A stretch of 64,000 nt of DNA from Acidobacteriota bacterium (GTDB lineage: Bacteria > Acidobacteriota > Vicinamibacteria > Fen-336), in assembly GCA_011526565.1 (NCBI GenBank), contig WYBL01000026.1:103928-167927 (forward strand), given 5' to 3'. How positions within the stretch are numbered: position 1 is the first letter of the stretch; each line of letters opens with the position of its first letter. Under the pieces are notes generated by a model that searched no databases, had not been told where the DNA came from, and worked only from the letters and a program-made list of their open reading frames with translations. This document shows, piece after piece, positions 1,849-26,784 of this stretch. The translations under genes were made by a program, and so were the position numbers.

Positions 1849-4020
1849 ATGCGCCGCCTGCTCGCCGTGGCCGCCCTGCTGGCGCTCTTCGCGCTGGCGC
1901 GCGGTCCCCTTCACCGGGCCACCTTCGCGCTGCCGGTGTCGAACGACGACGCGATCCCGCTGCTGATCGCCCGCCACCTGCTCGCGGGCGAGGCCGCCAC
2001 CATCCTGTGGAACCAGCCCTACAACGGCACCCTCGACGCGTTCCTGCTGGCGCCGCTGCTGGCCGCGCTGCCGCACCACGCCGCGTTCCGACTCTACGAG
2101 CTCCTGTGCGCCCTGGCGATGGTCGGCCTCTGCCACGCCCTCGCGCGGCGGGCGGGGGGCGAGGCCGCCGGCTGGGCCGCCGCGGCGCTGGCCGCGATCG
2201 GCACGCCCTACGCCGCGCTGATGGCCGCGACCGGGCCGACGCCGAACTTCCTGGTCCCGCTGCTGGCGGGAGTCGTCGCGCTGTTCGGCTATCGCGAGCG
2301 CGAGCGGGGCGACGCCTCGACCTCGCTCGCCGCCGGCGTCGGCCTCGTCGCCGGGCTCGCGGTGTGGGACTCGGCGCTGGCGGTGCCGCAACTCTTCGGC
2401 GCGGCCCTCGGGCTGCTGCTGCTGGGCCTGCGGCCGCGGCCGCGGGTGATCGCGGCGCTGGCGCTGGGGGCCGCTCTCGGCGCCTCGCCGCTGCTGCTCG
2501 CGCGCGCGGTCGGCGCTTCGGCGGCCAGCACCGTCACCGACACCCGCCCGCAGTGGCTGTGGGCCGACGGCCTGCGCGACCTCGGCCACGCGACGGCCGG
2601 CCTCTCCGGCCTGGAACTGGCGCTGGTGATCGACGGCCCCGAGCGCGAGACGCTGCCCTTCGCTGCGCGGGCCGCGCTGGGTGCGGGCCTGCTGGCGACG
2701 CTCGCGGCCGGCGTGACCCGTCGCAGCGGCCTGCCGCTGCTGCTCCACGCGCTGGCACTGGCCGGCGCCTTCGCGTGGTCGCGGCGCACGGGCCCCGACG
2801 AGGTGCGCTACCTCTACGGGCTGCTGGTGCCCGGCTACGCGCTGGCGGGCTGCGGCCTGGCGCGGCTCGCGGGGGCGAAGTGGACGTCGGCGCGTGGTGC
2901 AGGCGCTGTCGCCGTGGCGCTGGCCGTCGCCGCACCGTGGGTCCACGGGCACTGGCGGCTGGCCGAAGTGTGGAGCGACCCGGCGCACGCCGCGCGCGTG
3001 TGGCAGGTGCCGCCGGTCGCGCCGGCCGTCGCGGCGCTGCAGTCGGCCGGCTCGACGAGCGCCTACGCCAGCCTCCAGTTCGCGGGCCGGCTCGGCCTCG
3101 AAGGCGGCTGGGGCGTGCGCGCTTCCCAGGCGTGGAACGAACGCATCCCCGACGACCCGCTGCGCTTCCGCGACGAGGTCGACCTCGACCCCGGTGCGTC
3201 GTGGGTGCTGCACCCGCACCTCTCGCGCGGCATGCCGCGCGCGGGCGGCTTCCGCGCGCTGCTCGCGAGCCAGGGCGTGCGGGCGCGCGAGACGGCGGCT
3301 GGCGAAGTGGTCGTGTTCCACGGCTTCGAGGGGCCCTGGGACGAGCGCCGCTCGCTGCCGGCGTCGCAACTCTCCGTCGAGCCGCTGTCCGGGGGCAGTC
3401 CGCTGCCGTCCGTCGTCGACCGCGATGCCGCGAGCGGGTGGACCTCGCCGACCGGGCTCGCTCGCGGCGTGGGCCTGCGGGTGCGGCTGGCGACGCCGCA
3501 GCCGGTCGCCGCGCTGGTGCTGGTCGTGGGCCTCGACGCCGACGTCGAGGAGGTCGCCTGGAGCGCGTCCCTGCGGGCGACGGCGGAGGCCCCCGGCGAG
3601 ATCGTCGCCAGCGGTCCCGCCCGCTTCGGCCTGCGCTTCTGGAACGGCGCGCCGCGCGCGGGGCGACAGGGCGCGATCGTCGTGCCGCTCGGCGGGCGCG
3701 AGGCGGCGGCCGTCGACTGGGTCGCCCAGGCCCCCGGGCCGCCGCTCGACCTGCGCGAGGTGTTCGTGCTGGCGCCCGGAGCTCCCGTCGCCGAGGGCGG
3801 CGGGGCGCAGGCGCGGCAGGCTCTCTCGGCGGCCCGCGACGGAACCTGGCGGGCCGCGGCCTCGTCTTATGCCGAGGCAGCGCGGGAGGCCCCGGAGCGG
3901 GCGTCGTTCCACGCGGCCCGGCTGCGCGCCGAGTGGCGCGCAGGGCGCCGGCAGCGGCTCGACGTGGAATCGCTGCCCGACGGCGCGCCAGGGGAGTGGG
4001 GCAGGTCGAGGCCGGAGTGA
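1849..4020 (+). CDS. Polytopic membrane protein, ArnT/PMT-like (GT39/GT83-type) glycosyltransferase candidate, with a large C-terminal soluble domain
   Basis: There is an ATG at 1849, after which the composition becomes protein-like. There are many hydrophobic helices in the first ~400 aa (LLALFALARGPL..., LLAPLLAALPHH..., GLVAGLAVWDSALAV...). The long ORF upstream of 1849 is antisense to the DsbA-like gene and is Arg-rich. Confidence 0.55.
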   Translation: MRRLLAVAALLALFALARGPLHRATFALPVSNDDAIPLLIARHLLAGEAATILWNQPYNGTLDAFLLAPLLAALPHHAAFRLYELLCALAMVGLCHALARRAGGEAAGWAAAALAAIGTPYAALMAATGPTPNFLVPLLAGVVALFGYRERERGDASTSLAAGVGLVAGLAVWDSALAVPQLFGAALGLLLLGLRPRPRVIAALALGAALGASPLLLARAVGASAASTVTDTRPQWLWADGLRDLGHATAGLSGLELALVIDGPERETLPFAARAALGAGLLATLAAGVTRRSGLPLLLHALALAGAFAWSRRTGPDEVRYLYGLLVPGYALAGCGLARLAGAKWTSARGAGAVAVALAVAAPWVHGHWRLAEVWSDPAHAARVWQVPPVAPAVAALQSAGSTSAYASLQFAGRLGLEGGWGVRASQAWNERIPDDPLRFRDEVDLDPGASWVLHPHLSRGMPRAGGFRALLASQGVRARETAAGEVVVFHGFEGPWDERRSLPASQLSVEPLSGGSPLPSVVDRDAASGWTSPTGLARGVGLRVRLATPQPVAALVLVVGLDADVEEVAWSASLRATAEAPGEIVASGPARFGLRFWNGAPRAGRQGAIVVPLGGREAAAVDWVAQAPGPPLDLREVFVLAPGAPVAEGGGAQARQALSAARDGTWRAAASSYAEAAREAPERASFHAARLRAEWRAGRRQRLDVESLPDGAPGEWGRSRPE

Positions 4021-11364: not shown

Positions 11365-11427
11365 CGCTCCAGTCTAGCAAGCGCGCGGCGATTCGCCCGC
11401 CCGGCGGAGCGATACAATGACGGGACC

Positions 11428-13400: not shown

Positions 13401-13426
13401 GGGCGCGGAGTCTACCAAGCCGCGCG

Positions 13427-14392
13427 TCAGCGGCGGCGGCCGGTGCGATGGTCGGCTGCGGCAGCGGAGCGGTACCACTCGACCGCCTGCCGCAACCCGT
13501 CCATGAAGTCGACCCGCGGTTCCCACCCGAGCTCCGCGCGGGCGCGACGGCCGTCGCCGCACATGCGCCAGATCTCGTTCGGGCGGTCAGGCCGTGCCCG
13601 GACCTCGAGCGGCAGGCTCGATCCGGTCAGGGCATGCACCTGTTGCGCCACCTCGAGAACGGTCCGCTCCCGGCCGCTCGCCAGGTTGACGGGCCCCCGC
13701 GGCACCTGCTCCGCCACGGCCGCGGCCAGGATGCCGCGAACGAGGTCGCTCACGTGGTTGAACTCGCGAGTCTGGCGGCCCGACGAGATCCGCAGCGGCT
13801 GGCCGGCCAGGCCCGCGAGGATCAGCTCGGGAATCACCGCCTTCGCGGACTGGCCGGGACCGTAGGCGTTGAAGGGGCGGAGGATCACCACCTCGGGCCC
13901 GCCGGTCCGGCCCTGGAAAAGACGGCAGTACTGCTCGCCGGCCAGCTTGCTGACGCCGTAGGGCGAGGCCGGCTCGGGGGCGAAGCCCTCCTCGAACGGC
14001 ACCCGCTCCAGCCGTCCGTAGACCTCGGAGGTCGAGACGTGCACGAAGCGGCCGACTTCGCGGCACTCGTCGAGCAGGTTGGCCGTGCCCTTCGCGTTGA
14101 CGTCGAAGCACTCCTCGACCTGGACGAAGCTCTGCCCGACGTGGTTGTAGGCCGCGAGGTGGAACACCACGTCGACGCGGCGGCGCAGCGCCTCGCGCAG
14201 GGCCCCGCGGTTGCGCAGGTCGGCCTCGAGGACCTCGAGGTCCGTCCACACCTCGCGCAGCCGCGGGTTCCGCAGCGGATCGCGATAGCGCACGAGCGCC
14301 CGCACCGCCGCTCCGCCCTCGAGCAGCGCCTTCGTCAGCCACGAGCCGATGAACCCGGAAGCCCCCGTGACCAGGACCGCTCGGCCCTTCAT
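13427..14392 (-). CDS. NAD-dependent sugar epimerase/dehydratase (extended SDR; UDP-glucose 4-epimerase / dTDP-glucose 4,6-dehydratase-like)
   Basis: The glycine motif is MKGRAVLVTGASGFIGSWL. The catalytic motif is PASPYGVSKLAGEQY (YxxxK). There is an ATGA overlap with the upstream nucleotidyltransferase. Confidence 0.85.
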   Translation of the reverse strand: MKGRAVLVTGASGFIGSWLTKALLEGGAAVRALVRYRDPLRNPRLREVWTDLEVLEADLRNRGALREALRRRVDVVFHLAAYNHVGQSFVQVEECFDVNAKGTANLLDECREVGRFVHVSTSEVYGRLERVPFEEGFAPEPASPYGVSKLAGEQYCRLFQGRTGGPEVVILRPFNAYGPGQSAKAVIPELILAGLAGQPLRISSGRQTREFNHVSDLVRGILAAAVAEQVPRGPVNLASGRERTVLEVAQQVHALTGSSLPLEVRARPDRPNEIWRMCGDGRRARAELGWEPRVDFMDGLRQAVEWYRSAAAADHRTGRRR

Positions 14393-15111
14393 CGCCGCCA
14401 CTCCCGCATCCCGGGCCGGAAGCGGGCGCGAGCCTCGATCAGTTCGTCTGCGGTGTTGAACGTGAGGTGGTGGCCCCGGTGGCGGTGGGCCGCCAGCCGG
14501 CCGGCCCGGGCCAGCGCCTGGAGCAGGGCGTCGAGGTCGGTTCCGGACCGCAGCCGGTCGAGCGCGGCCGGCTCGCACAGCACGAACCCCACGTTCATCC
14601 AGTGGGGCAGCAGCGGCTTCTCGCGAAAGCGGCATACCCGGCCGTCGGCGGCGACCTCGGCGATCCCACCGGCCGCCCGCATCGGGACCACGGTGATGGT
14701 GGCCAGCGCCGCGCGCGCGCGATGGCGGCGGGCGAGCGCCCGCAGGTCCACGTCCGCCAGGGTGTCGCCGTAGCAGACGAGGACGCGGCCCGGGCAGTGG
14801 CGACGCGCGGCGATCAGGCGGTCGCTCATCGCCGCGGCCCCCGAGTCGACCACGACGACCTGGCGCCCGCGGCGACGCTCGCGGGAGGAGAAGGACGCGA
14901 ACGCCGCCGCTCCGTTTCCGACGGCGATCACGAAGCGCGTGATCCCCTGTCGCGCGAGGTCGTCGAGGAGCCGGCCCAGGATCGGCCGCCCGGCGAGCGG
15001 CACCAGCGGCTTGGGCACGAAGGCCGAGAGCGGGCGCAGGCGCCGAGCCTCGCCGCCGCACAGGATCACTGCGGTCAGGGAGTCGATTCCGGTTTCGGAG
15101 GCCGCGGTCAT
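14389..15111 (-). CDS. Sugar-phosphate nucleotidyltransferase (NDP-sugar pyrophosphorylase family)
   Basis: AVILCGGEARRLRPLSAFVPKPLVPLAGRPIL is the canonical NTP-transferase N-terminal signature. Confidence 0.8.
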   Translation of the reverse strand: MTAASETGIDSLTAVILCGGEARRLRPLSAFVPKPLVPLAGRPILGRLLDDLARQGITRFVIAVGNGAAAFASFSSRERRRGRQVVVVDSGAAAMSDRLIAARRHCPGRVLVCYGDTLADVDLRALARRHRARAALATITVVPMRAAGGIAEVAADGRVCRFREKPLLPHWMNVGFVLCEPAALDRLRSGTDLDALLQALARAGRLAAHRHRGHHLTFNTADELIEARARFRPGMREWRR

Positions 15112-15122
15112 CGGTCGCCGAG

Positions 15123-15142
15123 GCTAGCAGGCTCCTGCTAGC
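15123..15142. promoter_or_regulatory. Perfect 20-bp palindrome GCTAGCAGG-CT-CCTGCTAGC, a likely operator. It fills the ~38-bp divergent gap between the nucleotidyltransferase operon (minus) and the NTP_transf_5-like gene (plus).
   Basis: Read directly from the sequence. It sits 8 nt upstream of the ATG at 15150 and 12 nt from the minus-strand start at 15111. Confidence 0.5.
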
Positions 15143-15143
15143 T

Positions 15144-16250
15144 TTGGGCATGAGCGTGGCGCCGGCGGCCGGAGTCGTCGACTGCTGGCCACGGCCCGTC
15201 GAAGAACTCGTGCTCCAGGCCGGGCTCGGCGAAGGCGCGGCGCGAGACCGGGCCCTGTCGCAACTCGCCGGCCTCGACGTCACCGTCGAACGCCTGTCGC
15301 CCCAGGCGTTGCGCCTGCTCCCGCTCGCCCTGCAGGGAGCTCGCGCCGCCGGGGCTTCCGAGGCGCCGTGGATGGTGGCCGCGGAAGCCGTGTATGCCGG
15401 CTCCTGGCAGCGCCACGAACGCGCCTCGCCGCGCGTGGTCCGCGCCCTGCGAGCCCTCGCGGCCGCGGGCGTTCCCGTTCTCGTGCTGAAGGGCTGGGCG
15501 CTGGGCGACGTCTACGAAGACCCTGCGCTGCGGCCGGCCTCCGACCTCGACCTGCTGGTGCCCGCGGGCTCGTTCGAGGCCGCGGCCCGTGCGCTGGCCG
15601 GCGGAGGCTTTCGTCCACTCGCGGGCCCGGGCCCGACGGCGCACGCGCAGGCCTTCACCGCCCCCGACCTCGACGTCGACCTCCACCATCACGCGCTCGA
15701 GGAGTTCGTCGGCACCGCGCACGACGCCGCGCTGTGGGCCGACGCGGTCGCTTTCGACCTGTTCGGGCACGAGGCGCTACGGCTGGCCCCGATCGACCGG
15801 CTCCTGCTGACGTGCACCCACGGGCTGCGCTGGACGCCGGCCCCGGCTCTCCACTGGATCGCGGACGCGACGCTGGAGATCCGCACCCAGGGAGACGCGC
15901 TCGACTGGGATCGGCTCGCCGTGCGCGCCGAGGCCTTCGAACTCGCCTTGCCACTGCGGGCGGGCCTCGACTATCTCTCCGGGCTGGGCCTCGTGGTCGT
16001 GCCGCCGGAAGTGCTCCGCGCGCTCCACGCGGTCGGCGCACCGTGGGCCCGGCGGGTCGCGTTCGAAGCACGGCAGCGGGCCCCGGAGCGGCGCGGGCTG
16101 CTGCACGCCTGGGCGGTGCGCCACGAGTTCCGGAGACGGGCGCGGCGTGCGGGGTTCTCGCGCGCGCTGCACGCGGGGGGCTGGCGGCAGGACCTCGCCG
16201 GACTGTGGCGCGCGCTGCGCGTCTCGCTCGGGCTCAGCGCTCGCGGCTGA
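15144..16250 (+). CDS. NTP_transf_5-like (PF14907-type) uncharacterised nucleotidyltransferase. This is the family seen in kinase-containing lasso-peptide clusters. The probable true ATG is at 15150.
   Basis: ASDLDLLVPAGSFEAAARALAGGGF resembles the nucleotidyltransferase G[SG]xxDxD core. Size is about 365 aa. It is in genomic context with PqqD/HprK-like genes. Confidence 0.55.
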   Translation: MGMSVAPAAGVVDCWPRPVEELVLQAGLGEGAARDRALSQLAGLDVTVERLSPQALRLLPLALQGARAAGASEAPWMVAAEAVYAGSWQRHERASPRVVRALRALAAAGVPVLVLKGWALGDVYEDPALRPASDLDLLVPAGSFEAAARALAGGGFRPLAGPGPTAHAQAFTAPDLDVDLHHHALEEFVGTAHDAALWADAVAFDLFGHEALRLAPIDRLLLTCTHGLRWTPAPALHWIADATLEIRTQGDALDWDRLAVRAEAFELALPLRAGLDYLSGLGLVVVPPEVLRALHAVGAPWARRVAFEARQRAPERRGLLHAWAVRHEFRRRARRAGFSRALHAGGWRQDLAGLWRALRVSLGLSARG

Positions 16251-16965
16251 GCGGTCGTTGGCTTCCGCGCCCGCGGGCGACGGCGGCCCGCACGATCTCA
16301 CGCGCCGCGCGCGTTCGGCCGCGGACGATGCGGCTTCGAGAACGCTGCTGGAGCCGCCACACCATCGCGAGCAGACCCGGGACCCCGACGAACGTGGCCC
16401 GCTCACGCAGCCGCAGCATCAGGTCCCAGTCTTCCGACAACCGAAGGTGCGGAGCGTAACCGCCGACCGCCTTCAGCAAGCCGGTGCGGATCAGGCTCGC
16501 GGCATGGCAGATCCGGCCCGTCATCAGGTCCCACTGCGTGACCGGGGTCACGCCGATCAGCCGCGGCGGGCGCCGTCGGTCGGCGAACGTCTGGACGAGC
16601 AGGCCGCTCGCCGCGCCGGCGCCCGGGTTCGCGCGCAGCGCCTTCACCAGCGCAGACAGCGCTCCCGGCAGCAGCAGGTCGTCGGCGTCGCACGGGCTGC
16701 AGTAGGGTCCGCGCGCCAGCGCCAGCAGCCGGTTGCGGGTCGCCGCCGGAAACAGCCGCCGGCGATTGCGCAGCAGCCGCACCCGCGGATCGTGCCGCCA
16801 GGCGGCGAGCTTCGCCCAGGTGCCGTCCGTCGAGGCGTCGTCGCAGATCAGCAGCTCGAGGCGGACGCCGCGCTGCGACAACACGCAAACGATCTGCTCC
16901 TCGACCAGGTGCTCGGCGTTGCGGACGGCCATCAGCACGCTGACCTCGGGCCGGCGCTCGGTCAT
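16234..16965 (-). CDS. Family 2 glycosyltransferase
   Basis: VSVLMAVRNAEHLVEEQIVCVLSQ...LLICDDASTDGTW...SPCDADDLLLPGAL are the GT2 DxD motifs. ATGA overlap with upstream gene. Confidence 0.8.
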   Translation of the reverse strand: MTERRPEVSVLMAVRNAEHLVEEQIVCVLSQRGVRLELLICDDASTDGTWAKLAAWRHDPRVRLLRNRRRLFPAATRNRLLALARGPYCSPCDADDLLLPGALSALVKALRANPGAGAASGLLVQTFADRRRPPRLIGVTPVTQWDLMTGRICHAASLIRTGLLKAVGGYAPHLRLSEDWDLMLRLRERATFVGVPGLLAMVWRLQQRSRSRIVRGRTRAAREIVRAAVARGRGSQRPLSRER

Positions 16966-17666
16966 GGCCGGGTAGCTCGGCGTTGCCGTGCACGGCGGGC
17001 GAGGCTCAGGAAGGCGCGGGCCCAGTCCGGCCGCCGGCCACCGCGGGCCCGCCGCCGATAGACGTAGGTCAGCGCCCCCGGCACCAGCCGCAACTGCGTG
17101 ACCTCCGCGAGCTTCAACGTCAGGCTGACGCTGTCGAGTGGCGTGTCTTCGTCGTAGCCGCCGACGCCGAGCGCCAGCTCCCGGCGCAGCAGGGCGCCGG
17201 CGTGGTTGGCGGTGAACTCGAACAGGTCGGCGCCCGGGTCGTGCTGCCGGCCGCGCACCCACGGCGCGCGCTGCAGGCGCCTCCCGCGGCCCGTCTCCAG
17301 CATCAGGAAGCTGCCGTAGCAGTAACCGACCGCGGGATGGCGATCCAGGAAGCGGGCGAGGCGCGACACGCTGCCGGGCAGCAGCCAGTCGTCGGCGTCG
17401 CAAGGCATCACGTAGGCGCCGCGCGCCGCGCGCAGGAGCCGGTTGCGCACGGCGCCCACGGTGGTGCCGACCGCGTTGCGCAGCAGGCGCACGCGGGGGT
17501 CGCCGCGGAAGCGCTCCAGCTCGGCCCAGGTGCCGTCGGCCGAGCCGTTGTCGCAGGCGACCAGCTCGAAGCTCGCGTGGTCCTGGGCCAGCACGCAGCG
17601 CACCTGCTCCGCGACGAAGCGCTCGGCGTTGCGCGCCGGCATCAGCACCGAGACGCGCGGGCTCAA
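16962..17666 (-). CDS. Family 2 glycosyltransferase (second copy)
   Basis: VSVLMPARNAERFVAEQVRCVLAQ...LVACDNGSADGTW...MPCDADDWLLPGSV. The TTG start overlaps the PqqD-like stop (cgaTTGAgccc). Confidence 0.75.
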   Translation of the reverse strand: MSPRVSVLMPARNAERFVAEQVRCVLAQDHASFELVACDNGSADGTWAELERFRGDPRVRLLRNAVGTTVGAVRNRLLRAARGAYVMPCDADDWLLPGSVSRLARFLDRHPAVGYCYGSFLMLETGRGRRLQRAPWVRGRQHDPGADLFEFTANHAGALLRRELALGVGGYDEDTPLDSVSLTLKLAEVTQLRLVPGALTYVYRRRARGGRRPDWARAFLSLARRARQRRATRP

Positions 17667-18073
17667 TCGAGCTGGCCGAGGTACTTCAGGTTCCCGCGCT
17701 TCTCGAGGCGGGGCGCCCGATACGGCTGCGCGGCCGCGGCCCGCGCGCGCCGCGGCGCCGGAGCCGGATCGGCGAGAGTCCCCGGCTCGGCCAGCAGGCC
17801 CGCGGAGCGGAGCTGGCGGACGAACGCGTCGAAGTCCTTCGCCACCCGGGCCTCGGTGCCGCCGAGGGCCGCCGCCACCGCGGTGCAGATCGCCTCGCGC
17901 GTGGTGCGGCCGTCGAGCCGCTTCCAGATCGCGAGCGCCGCGCCGGCGAGTCCGTAGTACTCGCCGTTGGCCAGATCGAGCAGCATGCCTTCCTGCGGTC
18001 CGAACTCCTTGAACGGCACGTCGTCCCGGCGGCAGGGGAGCGCCGCGGGTGTTCGATTGCGATCTCGCGTCAT
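17663..18073 (-). CDS. PqqD-family peptide-binding chaperone (RiPP recognition element-like; lasso B1-like)
   Basis: VPFKEFGPQEGMLLDLANGEYYGLAGAALAIWKRLDGRTTREAICTAVAAALGGTEARVAKDFDAFVRQLRSAGLL follows the PqqD pattern. It has a Pro/Ala-rich tail. ATG at 18073. Confidence 0.7.
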   Translation of the reverse strand: MTRDRNRTPAALPCRRDDVPFKEFGPQEGMLLDLANGEYYGLAGAALAIWKRLDGRTTREAICTAVAAALGGTEARVAKDFDAFVRQLRSAGLLAEPGTLADPAPAPRRARAAAAQPYRAPRLEKRGNLKYLGQLD

Positions 18074-18096
18074 CCGCGGGAACGTAGCAGACGGGA

Positions 18097-18843
18097 ATGG
18101 GACCGGCAAAGAAGGTGGGGCCACGGCTGTTCGTCTTCGGGGGCTGCGACCCGCTCTCCGCGGGGGCGGCCGCTGCGCTCTCGCGGGCGATGCTGCGCCG
18201 TGCCTGCGCGGGTCCGCGCCCGCCCCGGCTCGGCCTGCTGGTGGCGGACGGCGTGGAGTCGGCGGACCTGGCCGGGTGGACGGCTCGCGCGCGCGGCTCC
18301 GGGCTGACGCTCGCCATCGCCGGCTTCGAGGACGTCCTGGCGGCCGCAGTCGCGGGCGACCTGGAGCTCGTGCACGTGCCGGCAGGCCACACCGCGCACC
18401 TGCTGCACCGCCTGGCCCCGTGGTCCGCGAGCCTGCGCGCTCGATGGGAGCGCGGGCTCGTGCTCTCGGGGCAGAGCGGCGGCGGGGCGTGTTTCGCGTT
18501 CCGGCTTTGGAGCGCGTCGCGTTTCGGGACGCCGGAATGGATCGACGGCCTTGGCTTCCTGCCCGTGGCACTGGGCGCGCACTTCGATCAGCCGATGTGG
18601 GCGACGCCCGAGTTGCCGGTGCCGGGGTTCGACGGGGACGTGCTGGCGCTCGATCACCACGCCGTGCTCGACTGGACGCCGGCGCGCGTCGCGTGCGTCG
18701 CCGCCCAGCCTGGCGCTCGAGCCTGGCGCCTGCGGGCGGGGCGGCAGCCGACGCCACTGCCAGCGCGCGATCTCAGCCGCATCCTCGCGTGGTGCACGCG
18801 CGGACGCCGCGCGCTCGGCCGGCTCGTCGGCCGCGCCCTGTAG
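18097..18843 (+). CDS. Peptidase S51-family protein (dipeptidase E/cyanophycinase-like; class I glutamine amidotransferase-like fold)
   Basis: Three blocks align with PepE. LFVFGGCDPLSAGAAAAL aligns with IIVGGGNTFQLL. LVLSGQSGGGACFAF aligns with YIGWSAGANLAC (Ser nucleophile). GLGFLPVALGAHFDQ aligns with LDLFPLQINPHFTN (His). The gene is divergent from PqqD with only a 24-bp gap. Confidence 0.6.
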   Translation: MGPAKKVGPRLFVFGGCDPLSAGAAAALSRAMLRRACAGPRPPRLGLLVADGVESADLAGWTARARGSGLTLAIAGFEDVLAAAVAGDLELVHVPAGHTAHLLHRLAPWSASLRARWERGLVLSGQSGGGACFAFRLWSASRFGTPEWIDGLGFLPVALGAHFDQPMWATPELPVPGFDGDVLALDHHAVLDWTPARVACVAAQPGARAWRLRAGRQPTPLPARDLSRILAWCTRGRRALGRLVGRAL

Positions 18844-18854
18844 AATCCGCGCGC

Positions 18855-19799
18855 GTGGAGACCTGGTACGACGTCTTCGGGCGGCGCTTCGTGGTCCGCT
18901 CTCAGCGTCGAGCCGTGCTCGAGCGGCTGCGCGGCAACGCCGCCTGGAGCCGGCTCGAGGCGCCCCCCGCGCCGAAGGCGGACGCCGAGATCGAGGTGCT
19001 GTTCCCGGCGGAGCCGAACCCGCTCCGCGAGGTGCAGTCCTTCGGCAACGAGACCTTCTTCCTCCACGCCAGCCGCCACAAGCTGATCACGGGACACTGC
19101 GCGGGCCGCCCCTGGCAGGTCCACGTGCAGAGCTTCGTCGCGGATCCCTTCCGCGTGGCTCACGCGATGGTGGTGCCGACGCTGCAGGACCTGGTCGAGC
19201 GCCGCGGGCTCTCGTCGCTGCACGCGGCCGCGGTCGCGTCCCGCGGCCGTGGCGTCCTGCTGTGCGGGGACACCGGCAGCGGCAAGAGCACGACCGCGCT
19301 CGCGCTCGTCGCCCAGGGGTTCGACTTCCTGACCGACAACGACGCGTACCTCGAGCTCGCGCGGGGTGCGGTCCGGGTGCGCAGCCGGGGCGCGAGGGTC
19401 GGCCTGCGGCCGGCAGCGGCCCGGCTGTTGCCCGGCGCGCCGGCGCTCGCTCGCTTCCCGCTGCGCGGGCGCGGCGCGCAGCGCAAGCGACAGGTGGACC
19501 CGGGCGCGATGTGGCCGCGCGCCTGCAGGAGCGCGGCGACCGTTCGGCTGCTGCTGTTCCCCCGCGTCGGCCGCGGCGGCCGCAGCCGGCTGCGGCCACT
19601 GTCGCCGACAGAGGCGCTGTCGAGGCTGCTCGACTCGTACCCGCTCGGTGGCAGCGTGCGAGGCGTGATCCCCGACGGCTGGGCCCAGCAACGGCGCTTC
19701 GAGCGCCTGTCCCTGCTCGTCGCCACGGCACCCGCGTACGCGCTGGACCTCGCTCCCGAGCTGGCGACGCTGGGCGAGCAGGTGCGAGAGCTGCTGTGA
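18855..19799 (+). CDS. HPr kinase C-terminal-domain-like P-loop kinase (HprK-related kinase). GTG start.
   Basis: LHAAAVASRGRGVLLCGDTGSGKSTTALALVAQGFDFLTDND matches HprK [25 protein letters not shown]. Confidence 0.7.
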   Translation: METWYDVFGRRFVVRSQRRAVLERLRGNAAWSRLEAPPAPKADAEIEVLFPAEPNPLREVQSFGNETFFLHASRHKLITGHCAGRPWQVHVQSFVADPFRVAHAMVVPTLQDLVERRGLSSLHAAAVASRGRGVLLCGDTGSGKSTTALALVAQGFDFLTDNDAYLELARGAVRVRSRGARVGLRPAAARLLPGAPALARFPLRGRGAQRKRQVDPGAMWPRACRSAATVRLLLFPRVGRGGRSRLRPLSPTEALSRLLDSYPLGGSVRGVIPDGWAQQRRFERLSLLVATAPAYALDLAPELATLGEQVRELL

Positions 19800-20884
19800 A
19801 GCGCCGCGGGCTGCGGCTCGCCTTCCAGCTCCATCCCCGGCTGTTCGGCGGCCAGGAGCGCTTCCTGCTGCGGCTGCTGGGCGCCCTGCGCGAACGGGGC
19901 CACGCCTGCTTCGTCGTTTCGGCGCCCGCGGGGCGCGTGCTGCGCGAGTTCGAGCGGGCCGGGTTCGAGTCGCTGCGGCTGGCCGGCCGCGACTTCGGCC
20001 GCGACCACGAACGCCTGGCTTCCTGGTTGCGCCAGCAGCGGGCGGACGTGGCGCAGACCAACCTCTACGCGCCGCTGGCGGGGCTGGCTGCCGCCGCTGC
20101 GGGCGTGCCCCACGTCTGGAGGGTCGGTGGCCATCCCGACGTGGCCCTCGCCGACATGGCACCGGCTCCCCGGCGGGGCCTGCTGCGGCTGCTCGCCTCG
20201 CTCTCCGCCGTGGTCGTGTGCAACTCGCGCTTCGTCGCCGGCGGGTTGCGCAACGGCGGTGTGCGCCGGCCTCGGGTGATTCCCAACGGCGCTCCGATCC
20301 CCCCTGCCGCGAGCCCGCGAGCCGCGGGCGACACCGTGCGGTTCGCGCTCGCCGCCCACTTCTATCCGGTGAAGCGCCACGCCGACTTCGTCCGCGCCGC
20401 CGCGTTCGTCGCGCGCCGCGTGCCCGCCCGCTTCCGGATCTACGGCTCGAGCTTCGGCCAGCCGGAGATGCGGCGTCACGAGCGCGCGGTCCGCGACCTG
20501 GTCCGGCGCCTGGGATTGCAGCGCCAGTTCGACTTCCGCTGCGCTCGCGCCGAGGGCGCGATCGCCGCGTGGAGCGACGTGGCCGTGCTGCCTTCGGTCG
20601 GCGAGAGCTGCAGCAACGCGGTGCTGGAGGCGATGGCCGCCGGCAGCGCCGTGGTGGCCGCTCGCTCCGGGGGCAACCCCGAGCTGGTGGTCCACGGGCG
20701 CAGCGGCCGGCTTCATCCACCGGGCGACTGGCGCGGGTTGGCGGCCGAGATGCTCGTCCTTGCCGCCGACCCGCGCCAGCGCGAGAAGCTCGGTCGTGCG
20801 GCTGCCCGGCGAGTGGTCGCGCGCTTCTCGATCGAGCGCTGCGCGTCGGCCTACGAGGAGCTCTACGGCGCGTTGGCCGGCTGA
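19796..20884 (+). CDS. Family 4 (GT-B, group 1) glycosyltransferase. The GTG start overlaps the upstream stop.
   Basis: The C-terminal GT4 signature is PSVGESCSNAVLEAMAAGSAVVAARSGGNPELVVHGRSGRL (E-x7-E region). Confidence 0.8.
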   Translation: MKRRGLRLAFQLHPRLFGGQERFLLRLLGALRERGHACFVVSAPAGRVLREFERAGFESLRLAGRDFGRDHERLASWLRQQRADVAQTNLYAPLAGLAAAAAGVPHVWRVGGHPDVALADMAPAPRRGLLRLLASLSAVVVCNSRFVAGGLRNGGVRRPRVIPNGAPIPPAASPRAAGDTVRFALAAHFYPVKRHADFVRAAAFVARRVPARFRIYGSSFGQPEMRRHERAVRDLVRRLGLQRQFDFRCARAEGAIAAWSDVAVLPSVGESCSNAVLEAMAAGSAVVAARSGGNPELVVHGRSGRLHPPGDWRGLAAEMLVLAADPRQREKLGRAAARRVVARFSIERCASAYEELYGALAG

Positions 20885-22526
20885 GCCAGCTCGCGCTCGA
20901 GCGCCTCCGCGACGACCTTCGCCGCCAGTGCCTGGCCCGCCTCGTTGAAGTGCCCGTCCCACGGCAGGTAGAGGTTGCGCGCCCTGGCGGCGTGGCGGAA
21001 CGCCTCGCTTGGATCGACCCAGGTGATGCGCTGCTCCTCGCAGAACGCGCGCAGCCGGTTCCGCTCCCGATCCAGGTCGAAGTCGGACGCGGCGAGGTTC
21101 CAGCGCCGTGCGAGCACCGACCAGTCCTGGGCCTGCACGGCGTGCCGCTGGGGCAGGTAGACGAGGACGAAGCGGGCGCCGCGTTCCTGCGCGGTCCGGT
21201 TCATCGCCGCGAGCAGCGGCAGCGAGACGGCCCACGAGTCGGCCGCCGGTGGCAGTTCCTCCCGATACGCGAAACCGAGGTTGGGAAACCCGTCGAACAG
21301 CAGCTTGCGGGGTCCCCGCTGGACGAGCGCCCCGCCGCTCACCGTCAGTTCGCCGCGGAACTCGTCGCTTCGCTCCGGGCCCGGCGGCGGCCGCAGCGCC
21401 CGCAGGGAGCGGAGGGCCAGCACGGCCTGCAGCGCCGGATGCGGCGCCCGGGGCGGAGCGGCGGTCGCGGCGATCGACGGATCGCCGTCGCGCGGATACG
21501 TCCACTGGCGCCACTGGCCGAACCGCACCCGGGCGGCCGGCCGTGCGACCCTGCGCAGCCGTCCGTCGGCGTCGAGGCGGATCGCACCCTGCGCCCCGCA
21601 GCCGAGCCAGCCCTGCAGGAGGTCGTTCCCCGAGAGGCCGAACAGCACGATGTCCGGTCGCAATGCGGCGCCGTGACGCTGCAGGTAGAGGGCGCCGTAG
21701 CAGGGATCCGAGACCTCGGCGTTCCAGACCCGCACCGGGCGCCGCAGGGCGGCGACGAGGCGGCGCTGGACCAGCGGACCCAGGAACGCGTGCTGGTCGA
21801 CGCCGAAGCCGATCCCGAACGAGTCGCCGAGGTTCAGCACGGTCAGGCCGCCCGGCAACGGCGGGGTGTCCGGCTCCTCGTCGTTGCGCAGCCCGATCCG
21901 GTTCGTCGCGAACCAGACGCGGCGTTCCGCATCCAGGCCCGAGCGCGCGATCCAGGTTCGTACCGACGGCCGCAGGCGCCCGCCGGGGCCAATCAGCGGT
22001 TCCTGCAGCGGGAAGAGGAACGCGAAGGTCCTGCGGTCGCCCCATCGCGGCACACCCTCGGACCGCTCCGAGCCGAGGCGCGCTGCGAACTCGGGGGCGA
22101 GCAACCCGCTCGCGGCGAGGGCCAGGCTGGCCAGCACGAGCAGTCCCTCGCCGCTGCGGCGCGACACGGCCCACGCCAGCGTCGCGAGATTCGCCGTCCA
22201 GAGCCAGGCGAGCAACCCGGCCACCTGGGAAGGGACCGCGATCGCCCACGCAGCCGCTCCCGCCACGGCGACCGCGCGGATCGCCACCCACCGGCGCGGC
22301 CGGTCCGCGACGGCCGCGGCGAGGGCGGGGAAGCGCCACGCGGCGAGCGCCTGGCCGCACGCGAGCGCCGCCAGCGGCAGCATCACGCCCACCGCATAGC
22401 GCCAGGACCATCCGAGCAGCACAGGGTCGTCACTGGCGTGCCGGCCGGCCAGGGCCAGCGAGACGGCCCCCAGCAACGCAACCGCACCTGCGGTGGCCGC
22501 CGCCAGCGCCGTCGGCACTCGCGGGC

Positions 22527-22530
<4 letters not shown>
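20863..22530 (-). CDS. Membrane-anchored SGNH/GDSL hydrolase-family protein (AlgJ/PatB-like acyl-esterase/acetyltransferase candidate)
   Basis: The N-terminal ~200 aa is polytopic. Block I is GLTVLNLGDSFGIGFG and block V is YLPWDGHFNEAG. The TTG start overlaps the ABC stop (tcTTGAgccc). Confidence 0.7.
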
Positions 22531-24163
<1,633 letters not shown>

Positions 24164-24167
<4 letters not shown>

Positions 24168-25930
24168 GCGGCGTGCCCCGTGGCGGGGCCGTCGACGTGG
24201 CGGCGATGCCAGGCCTCGATCACGAACAGGGCCCAGAGCCGATAGCCGTGCAGGGCCCGCAGCCGCGCATGTTCGTCCCACAGCCGCTGCACGTAACGCT
24301 GGCGGAACAGGCCGCGCTGCCGGCACCGGGGCGAAAAGAGGAGGTCCGCCACCTGGTCGCGGAACGGTCCCGGCTGCCAGAGCCAGGCATCGATCGGGAG
24401 CGCGAACCCGCGCTTGCGGCGCGTGAGCACGGGCGGCGGCAACAGCGCCGCAAAAGCGCGCCGCAGCAGCTTCTTGCCTGAGTGCCGGTCCACGCGCCAG
24501 GCGACCGGAAGGCCGGTGGCGTGGTCGGCGAAGGGGCGGGACAACGCGGGCACGCGGATCTCCAGCCCGGCCAGCATCCCGGCCCGGTCGCACTTGTGCA
24601 GCAGGTCCGCGGGCAGATAGCGGCGCAGGTCGTCGCTGAGCCGACGCTCGCGGCGGCTGGCCAACCGCGCGTGTGGAGGCAGGGACGCCGCCGGCTGCCA
24701 CGCGCCGAGCCGGCGGCGGAAGGCGGCTGACGGCAGGCCGCCCAGCGGAGTTCCCGCGCCGGGCCACGCGGCCAGTGCGTCGGCGGCGAGATCGAGACGG
24801 CGGTGCCAGAAATTGCCGCCATGCAACTCGTCGAGGCCTTCACCTCCCAGCACGGCCTTGACGTGGCCGCGCGCGAAGCGGGCCAGCAGGTGGGTCGGCA
24901 CCACCGAGGCGTCCGCGAACGGCTCGTCGAGGTCCTCGAAGAGCGCGGGGAGCGCGCGGGCGGCGGTCGTGGCGTCGATCGAGATCTCGTGGTGGGTGGT
25001 GCGGAAGCGCTGCGCGACCAGCCGCGCGAACGGCCCCTCGTCGAATCCCGGCGCGGCGATGCGGGCGGAGAAGGTGGGCAATCCGGGGCAGTGGCGGCTG
25101 GCGAGGGCCACGACGGCGCTGGAGTCGAGCCCACCGCTGAGGAACACGCCGACGGGGCCGTCGGCGCGCAAGCAGCGTTCGACCGAGGCGTCCAGGCGCC
25201 GGACCAGCGTGCGCGCCGCGTCGGCGGGCCGCCCGGCCCGCGCGGGGGTTCGCGCGGGCGGAGGCTCGTGGTACCGGCGCAGGGTGCTCGCTCCGTCCGC
25301 CTCGACGACCAGGACGTGTGCGGCCGGGAGGCGGCGCACGTCTCGCCAGATCGACCGCGTGTCGTCGATCGCGAGGCGCGTCAGGCAGTCCGCCAGCGCC
25401 CGCGGATCGACGCGTCGATCGAAGCCGGGAGCCGCCGCCAGCGCCCCGGGCTCGGACGCGAAGCGCAGCCGCCGCGCGTCGCGGACGTAGTAGAGCGGCT
25501 TGATCCCGAACGGGTCGCGGGCCAGCACCAGCCGCCGGCGCCGCGCATCCCACAGCGCGAAGGCGAACATCCCGCCGATCCGCTCGACGAAGCGGAGGGG
25601 ATCGTCCTCGTAGAGGTGCAGGATCACCTCGCAATCGCTGCCCGTGCGCAACGAGTGGCCGCGCCCGGCGAGCCGCACCCCCTGCTCGCGGGCGTCGTCC
25701 ACGTGGCCGTTGCAGACGAGCCACAGGCTCGCGTCCTCGTTGCTCAGCGGCTGGGCTCCCCCCGCGGCATCGATCACGGCGAGACGCCGATGGCCGAGAC
25801 CCAGCGTCCCGTCGAAGTGGAAGCCCGCGCCGTCGGGGCCGCGGTGGGCCAGTCGACGCGTCATCTCGCGCACGGCCCGCCGATCGACCGGCGCCCCGTC
25901 GAACCGCCACTCGCCCGCGATCCCGCACAT
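24164..25930 (-). CDS. Asparagine synthetase (glutamine-hydrolysing) family protein with intact Cys1 glutaminase domain. It is a candidate sugar/peptide amidotransferase or lasso-cyclase-like enzyme.
   Basis: MCGIAGEW is an Ntn Cys1 start. The PP-loop is VGVFLSGGLDSSAVVAL. The AsnB C-terminal domain is present. ATG at 25930. Confidence 0.85.
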
Positions 25931-25986
25931 CCGGCGCCAACGATATACGGATTGGCCGCGGGCGCCGCGGGCTAGGATCCCGGATC

Positions 25987-26784
25987 TTGATCCAGGCAGG
26001 ACGTGCAGCGGAGGACTCGACGCTGGTGCTCGGAGCCGCCGGTCGCGTCGGGCGCGTGCTCGCCGCGCGACGGGTCGGGGGCCCGCGGGCCGCCTTCGTC
26101 GACGTGGACGCCCTGGACGTGAAGGAGCCCGTCGCCCTGGCGCGGGCCGCGCGCTCCCACGAGCGCTGGGTTCACCTGGCGAGCGAACTGCGCACGGCCG
26201 CGGTCGATCCCGCTGCCGCCGACGCCGAGGCCTGGCGGTGGCGGCGGTCGCACGTCGAGATGGCGCGCCGCGTGCTCGCGGCTGCCGTGGCCGGCGGCGT
26301 GCGCCAGGTGGTGCTGGCCAGTTCGGTCCGGGCGGCGGACCAGGATGCCGCCGGTGCCGGCCCCGACAGGTTGACGCACGCCGGTATGAACCGCGCGATC
26401 GAGGAGGCGGGTCGCGAGGCGTCACGCTCCGGACCCGACGTCGCCTGCATTCGGCTCGGCAGCGTCTCGTGGCCCGACCGGCCCCGCAGCCCCGACGAGG
26501 CGCTGTGGCTCTCGCACGAGGACTGCGCGGCCGCGTTCGCGGCCGTGCTCGCCTCGCCCCCGGTCGGCGGCCGCTTCACGGCGTTCACGGCCGTCTCGGC
26601 GCTGGCGGGTACGCACCCGGACACGGCGAACCCCTTCGGCTGGCAACCACACACCAGGCGAGTGGGATGGCGCCGCCGGGCCCACGGGCGGGTCGTCGAC
26701 CTCAAGGGCCGGCTGCTCGACTCGCCGCTGGGACCGTTCCTCCGCGAGTGTCAGCGCTCCGGACGGCGCCTGGTGGGTTCCTGA
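25987..26784 (+). CDS. NAD(P)-binding Rossmann-fold protein (atypical SDR/NmrA/epimerase-like). TTG start inferred.
   Basis: TLVLGAAGRVGRVLAARR glycine-rich loop. It is divergent from the Asn-synthetase gene by 56 bp. Confidence 0.55.
   Translation: MIQAGRAAEDSTLVLGAAGRVGRVLAARRVGGPRAAFVDVDALDVKEPVALARAARSHERWVHLASELRTAAVDPAAADAEAWRWRRSHVEMARRVLAAAVAGGVRQVVLASSVRAADQDAAGAGPDRLTHAGMNRAIEEAGREASRSGPDVACIRLGSVSWPDRPRSPDEALWLSHEDCAAAFAAVLASPPVGGRFTAFTAVSALAGTHPDTANPFGWQPHTRRVGWRRRAHGRVVDLKGRLLDSPLGPFLRECQRSGRRLVGS

Follow-up and report, generated by a model that had tools for sequence, protein, structure and literature searches.

A 9-2-9 inverted repeat between divergent genes of a Vicinamibacteria genome is most likely a pair of back-to-back leaderless promoters

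The inverted repeat GCTAGCAGGCTCCTGCTAGC, which has a 9-2-9 architecture and occupies positions 15123-15142 of the window (the whole 64-kb stretch of DNA that was analyzed; G+C content, 74%), is probably formed by two sigma-70-type extended -10 elements (TGnTAnnnT) that lie back to back, face outward, and produce leaderless mRNAs. The window is nearly identical to contig JAHDVO010000002.1, which belongs to a Vicinamibacteria (Acidobacteriota) metagenome-assembled genome. Judged from its sequence, the locus is most likely an ordinary divergent leaderless promoter pair of a high-GC Vicinamibacteria genome, in which the consensus boxes happen to form a palindrome.

The repeat lies in a 38-bp divergent gap (15112-15149) between ATG 15111 on the minus strand and ATG 15150 on the plus strand. 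This is where the initial annotation had placed it, and Pfam searches confirmed the families of the flanking genes. The plus-strand gene (15150..16250) encodes an NTP_transf_5 protein (PF14907; E = 5e-34) and is predicted to be leaderless. The minus-strand gene (14389..15111) encodes an NTP_transferase (PF00483; E = 5e-17), is predicted to be leaderless or nearly so, and heads an operon in which it is followed by an epimerase gene and then by a GNAT-like gene of 277 aa. Public-record gene calls concur for both flanking genes, and codon-position G+C supports both reading frames.

We compared the window with four further lineages: the L001 type (81% protein identity), which also takes in L011, L026, L070, and L071, as well as L069, L002, and L003. 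ATG 15111 and ATG 15150 are invariant across four lineages, and the N-terminal codons adjacent to them vary. The plus-strand gene has no earlier start, because L002 carries an in-frame TGA two codons upstream. That TGA stands at the codon of TTG 15144, which is thereby excluded as a start for this gene. For the minus-strand gene, GTG 15069 is an unlikely start, given that the ATG is fixed in four lineages and the codons after it vary. None of the Shine-Dalgarno cores GGAG, GAGG, AGGA, GGGA, and AAGG was found at -17 to -7 of either flanking gene. A minus-strand AGGAG in the middle of the palindrome was rejected as a ribosome site; at 20 nt from ATG 15111, it is too far away.

The initial annotation had described the feature as a perfect 20-bp palindrome. 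The inverted repeat itself, GCTAGCAGG-CT-CCTGCTAGC (15123..15142, with no strand of its own), is real, but it falls short of a strictly perfect 20-bp palindrome, as CT, its center, is not its own reverse complement. Nor does it stand out simply as an inverted repeat: when we counted perfect inverted repeats whose arms reach 9 nt or more and whose spacer does not exceed 6 nt, the window contained 18, compared with 10.9 ± 4.5 in order-2 Markov simulations. It is distinguished by its lower G+C content, its intergenic location, and its conservation. Two of the 12 CTAG tetramers in the window sit inside it.

Each arm, read outward, gives TGnTAnnnT, with the TG exactly one base 5' of the hexamer. 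On the plus strand, the extended -10 element TGCTAGCTT (15136..15144) consists of a TG at 15136-15137 and the hexamer TAGCTT at 15139-15144. It ends 5 nt ahead of ATG 15150, so that the first T of TAGCTT is at -11, and is separated from the predicted start, A15150, by the discriminator TGGGC (15145..15149). On the minus strand, the extended -10 element TGCTAGCCT (15121..15129) consists of a TG at 15129-15128 and the hexamer TAGCCT at 15126-15121. It ends 9 nt ahead of ATG 15111, with the first T of TAGCCT at -15; the stretch between box and ATG, CGGCGACCG (15112..15120), would be a discriminator or a very short leader. Neither discriminator contains a Shine-Dalgarno site. The 9-nt spacing on the minus strand is at the long end of the range and implies a leader of 2 to 3 nt rather than of zero. 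The region contained nothing that matches the E. coli-type two-hexamer (-35/-10) promoter consensus, and the 38-bp gap has no space for a -35 box. On the strand relevant to each gene, no further TANNNT occurs within about 1.3 kb upstream.

We propose that the primary-sigma holoenzyme reads both extended -10 promoters. Oriented toward the plus-strand gene, polymerase would recognize TGCTAGCTT and initiate at A15150 or an adjacent base; in the opposite orientation, it would recognize TGCTAGCCT and initiate at about 15114-15111. These start sites are deduced from the usual 6 to 8 nt between a -10 box and its start site. Both mRNAs would begin at the AUG or within about 3 nt of it and, being leaderless, would be translated without a Shine-Dalgarno sequence. 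The TG extension would dispense with a -35 box, which fits a gap lacking room for one. The palindrome itself would arise where the lineage consensus c-y-TG-c-TA-G-n-n-T occurs once per strand with 6 bp between the TGs. Simultaneous occupancy of the two promoters is probably impossible, because two polymerase footprints would overlap.

The placement of the motif across the window supports this promoter reading. When both strands were searched, we found only six copies of TGNTANNNT in the 64 kb, and all six stand 5 to 9 nt ahead of a start codon (11364-, 13400-, 15111-, 15150+, 18073-, and 54203-, with the strand given after each position) of a long open reading frame with high third-position G+C. 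Markov models predict about six to seven copies; thus, the number of copies is unremarkable, and the information lies in where they stand. The shorter TANNNT occurs about threefold less often than expected (42 copies observed compared with 130 ± 11 in order-2 Markov simulations), which suggests selection against spurious -10 boxes. About a third of these copies lie at leaderless distance from start codons. Their first T falls at -11 to -15 in 14 of the approximately 57 predicted genes of the window; by our own estimate from the background frequency, about 0.13 genes would be expected to have such a box. Thirteen of the 14 TANNNT-led genes lack a Shine-Dalgarno-like match, and the lone match (25987) overlaps the TAGGAT box. 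Shine-Dalgarno-like sites do occur before many operon-internal genes of the window.

A TG at -15/-14 is present in 6 of the 14 leaderless-type promoters. The context 5' of the boxes in the window is mostly c-y-TG-c-TA-G, and therefore arm CCTGCTAGC is mostly lineage consensus. Two outward-facing boxes in the same layout also occur in the divergent gaps 11365-11427 and 25931-25986. Within the minus-strand operon, TGGTAGACT lies at 13409-13417 on the minus strand, 8 nt before ATG 13400 and inside the 26-nt spacer downstream of the stop codon of the epimerase gene. This gives the GNAT-like gene a separate promoter within the apparent operon, and the box is kept in L002 (as TGCTAGACT) and in L003. 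A 15-mer, TAGAATCCGCGCGCG, occurs twice in the window, at 648 (minus strand) and at 18841 (plus strand). The copy at 18841 precedes GTG 18855, and the copy at 648 has no start codon at the usual distance.

We found that the orthologous loci keep the promoter pattern and lose the symmetry with distance. The palindrome is identical in L001, L011, L026, L070, and L071, and of the 38 gap positions, only one, in the minus-strand discriminator, is different in L001. In L069, whose NTP_transferase is 81% identical, the repeat reads GCTAtCAGGgTCCTGCTAGC, and the arms match at 8 of 9 positions. The half-site change (GCTAtCAGG) sits in the middle of the half-site; on the minus strand, which reads TGATAGCCT, only the free n of TGn and one central base are altered. 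In L002 (77% identical), the NTP_transferase gene has been lost and the gap has been kept, with 33 of 38 positions identical to the window. Its right arm reads CCTGCTAcc, and the arms match at 7 of 9 positions. TGCTACCGT-N5-ATG is still present there: the substitutions alter two n positions of the hexamer, and two of the five substitutions in the gap fall in the plus-strand discriminator TGGGC. L003 (55% identical) has no palindrome. Its NTP_transf_5 gene is still led by TGTTACCTT-N6-ATG, and the gene that heads its minus-strand operon by TGGTAGACT-N9-ATG.

L069, L002, and L003 all preserve the TG, the TA, the final T, and the distance to the start codon, and L001 preserves the TG as well. All eight gap positions substituted in L001, L002, or L069 are outside the ten TG/TA/T positions, an outcome whose probability by chance is about 0.06 by our own hypergeometric estimate. 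Two of the eight are within the arms, and neither is compensated in the opposite arm. The minus-strand discriminator (15112-15120) carries substitutions in both L001 and L002. Elsewhere in the cluster, promoters likewise retain their boxes and spacing in L002 and L003, and the sequence in between diverges, even in length. A locus with 44% identity (P0005) has a different gene arrangement and no palindrome and was set aside as uninformative as a distant ortholog.

In L002, the promoter and ATG of the deleted NTP_transferase gene persist (3889-3962 of that contig) and open a remnant open reading frame of 24 codons, the TGA of which overlaps the epimerase ATG (ATGA). Translational coupling thus seems to preserve the leaderless start of the minus-strand operon in L002.

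Over its full length, the gap has changed less than synonymous sites have: identity is 37/38 and 33/38 in L001 and L002, compared with values of 78% and 72% for third codon positions. Some constraint therefore acts on more than the ten critical bases. The non-palindromic 23-bp gap at 18074-18096 has 0 and 1 differences from L001 and L002, respectively. Being at least as conserved, it indicates that these tight promoter gaps are generally conserved.

The initial annotation had interpreted the palindrome as a dimeric transcription-factor operator controlling both directions. That it is a cis-acting transcription signal serving both genes agrees with our results; we found no support for an operator of a dimeric factor. 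In the operator reading, the gene for a dimeric transcription factor would lie elsewhere, and its product, bound to the 9-2-9 repeat, would mask both -10 boxes and in this way repress or coactivate both operons. It can coexist with the promoter reading, and we consider it unlikely. The repeat has the layout of an operator, two half-sites and a short spacer, and its symmetry extends without a mismatch past what the minimal promoter pattern requires. For two extended -10 boxes, the probability that the arms agree at the five free positions is about 0.01, a hand-computed, post hoc value that takes the other 12 leaderless promoters of the window as background. Such agreement is somewhat unlikely. 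In addition, the 21-nt core GAGGCTAGCAGGCTCCTGCTA is unchanged in the window, L001, and L002, and the conservation of the whole gap exceeds that of synonymous sites. Arm agreement and gap conservation together leave room for a possible extra constraint, such as a factor acting on top of the promoters.

Several results argue against the operator. The half-site GCTAGCAGG has no further exact copy in the 64-kb window. Copies with one mismatch are near chance level (24 compared with 16.9 ± 3.8; 4 of 100 shuffles reached 24), and none of them is paired. The half-sites are altered in L069 and L002 and missing in L003, where both promoters persist, and the symmetry decays in the orthologs only at positions that the promoter pattern leaves free. 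The adjacent promoter gap at 18074-18096 is equally conserved with no palindrome, and every TGnTAnnnT copy in the window has the same placement before a start codon as the two arms. The initial annotation had also stated that the cluster encodes no regulator, and this held: a Pfam scan of 30 open reading frame translations (about 29 distinct genes, covering about 0.7 to 29 kb) identified no gene with a DNA-binding domain.

Searches beyond the window likewise point away from an operator. Among 185,579 species-representative genomes, the only match to GCTAGCAGGNNCCTGCTAGC, with any central dinucleotide allowed, was the contig of the L001 ortholog. A metagenome scan with the looser pattern GCTAGCAGGNNCCTGCTA returned 59 loci, of which only L011 and L026 are orthologous. 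Of the nonorthologs, L016 and L061 have the identical 20-mer within coding sequence from an unrelated organism (65 to 67% G+C), a chance match, and others are the longer palindromes of low-GC contigs described below. A repeat element scattered over many nonregulatory sites, the outcome that would have spoken against the initial annotation, was looked for in the window and in the 185,579 genomes and was not found. We therefore rejected both a repeat element and a regulon, since the ortholog is the only match among the representative genomes and the metagenome nonorthologs are unrelated loci.

The same scan turned up two kinds of unrelated loci. Longer palindromes surround GCTAGCAGG-NN-CCTGCTAGC in L009, L012, L017, L019, L022, L038, L055, and L057, which have 36 to 41% G+C. 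Several of these low-G+C contigs have common flanks, and the palindromes look like a repeated hairpin element of an unrelated organism. The unrelated high-GC contigs L063 and L040, which were fetched by the arm pattern, have TGnTAnnnT-N7-ATG before open reading frames. By eye, the N terminus of the plus-strand open reading frame of L063 resembles a cation-efflux protein.

A further reading holds that the symmetry itself was selected: the repeat would be a single docking site that accepts polymerase in one orientation at a time, so that the two operons are mutually exclusive, possibly with an unlinked dimeric factor. We regard this reading as quite improbable. If it were true, the sugar-nucleotide operon and the NTP_transf_5 gene of a lasso-like peptide cluster would not be transcribed at the same time, the two near-identical arms would determine the ratio between them, and an unlinked dimeric factor might act on the symmetric core.

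We give little credence to the view that the inverted repeat arose by chance in a G+C-rich genome and is itself functionless. Inverted repeats this long are common in the window (the 18 observed against 10.9 ± 4.5 simulated), and the identical 20-mer has arisen by chance in the coding region of an unrelated organism. Against this, the bases involved are conserved across lineages with 72 to 78% third-position identity, and they fit a motif found only before start codons in the window. The sequence is therefore functional, though its exact symmetry may be accidental. An RNA hairpin or DNA cruciform is hardly credible. In this reading, promoters inside the opposite coding region would place the repeat in both 5' leaders, where its folding would influence stability or translation. 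Folded as DNA, the gap reaches -9.6 kcal/mol, and flanking bases lengthen the stem, but the z-score is a modest -1.85, and 9 of 200 shuffles did equally well. No T/U tract follows the stem, and there is no terminator-like site (termination is needless in the gap, because the flanking genes diverge). The substitutions in L069 and L002 are uncompensated, leadered mRNAs would have no Shine-Dalgarno site, a search of about 1.3 kb upstream gave no -10 candidate, and Rfam gave no match.

To the right of the palindrome, the cluster at 17663-26784 looks like a lasso-peptide-type (RiPP) system with sugar-modifying genes. The Pfam scan identified PqqD (17663-18073), a weak Peptidase_S51-like gene (18097-18843), an HPr-kinase-like gene (18855-19799), a GT1 glycosyltransferase (19796-20884), an AlgX/SGNH protein within the cluster, an ABC exporter (22527-24167), and an asparagine-synthase-like gene (24164-25930). 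Two GT2 genes lie at 16234-17666. The gap at 18074-18096 separates the divergent PqqD and S51-like genes by 23 bp and is almost invariant in L001 and L002. On its minus strand, TGCTACGTT lies 7 nt before ATG 18073, and the complement of TGCTACGTT gives a plus-strand TAGCAG 6 nt before ATG 18097. We regard this gap as a candidate bidirectional promoter of the shared-box kind, whose two starts would be about 24 bp apart.

The main value of the divergent promoter pair at 15112-15149 is as a caution. In high-GC genomes with leaderless genes, a short palindrome in a tight divergent gap can be two -10 boxes on opposite strands, and such palindromes should not be annotated as operators. For this Vicinamibacteria lineage, we also derive the rule that TGnTAnnnT 5 to 9 nt before an ATG or GTG marks operon starts. 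The rule helps to fix gene starts and operon boundaries in the neighboring cluster for a lasso-like peptide and its glycosylation.

Extended -10 (TGn) promoters work without a -35 box and make contacts with region 3.0 of sigma-70. The two elements described here resemble them in having a TG one base before the hexamer in both arms, as 6 of the 14 window promoters do, and in lacking a match to the E. coli-type two-hexamer consensus; their independence of a -35 box is a prediction. Their hexamers (TAGCTT and TAGCCT) are G+C-rich, unlike TATAAT. Operators of dimeric repressors share with the repeat 9-bp arms that are centered in a short divergent gap and overlap both -10 boxes. The repeat differs from such operators in that an adjacent regulator gene and a second site are absent and the half-sites are not kept in orthologs.

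Leaderless genes of other bacteria provide a close comparison. Zheng et al. described "TA-led" genes, which have TANNNT about 12 nt upstream of the start codon, and found the signal in all three Acidobacteria genomes examined, in an average of 13% of genes (2011; PMC3160421). The mean spacer from promoter to start is about 6 nt (bioRxiv 10.1101/2022.07.25.500264), and group C of GeneMarkS-2, as described there, comprises such promoters. Like these high-GC leaderless promoters, the pair described here has the first T of TANNNT at -11 (plus strand) and -15 (minus strand) and no Shine-Dalgarno sequence; the mid-hexamer positions are low in information, and the pattern is present in about a quarter of the window genes. 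Unlike the known leaderless promoters, the two abut on opposite strands and read jointly as a palindrome.

Bidirectional promoters are a further relevant class. As summarized in PMC12825309, those of Warman et al. (2021) have a shared, symmetric -10 element and divergent starts 10, 18, or 23 bp apart. The promoter pair at 15112-15149 resembles that class, as so described, in the symmetry of its -10 region and in that polymerase would bind in either orientation but not in both. It differs in having two separate hexamers (15121-15126 and 15139-15144), 12 bp apart, in place of one shared box, and its predicted starts are 36 to 39 bp apart. The gap at 18074-18096 comes close to the 23-bp class of E. 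coli and, going by the same description, fits the shared-box promoters of Warman et al. better than the palindromic gap does.
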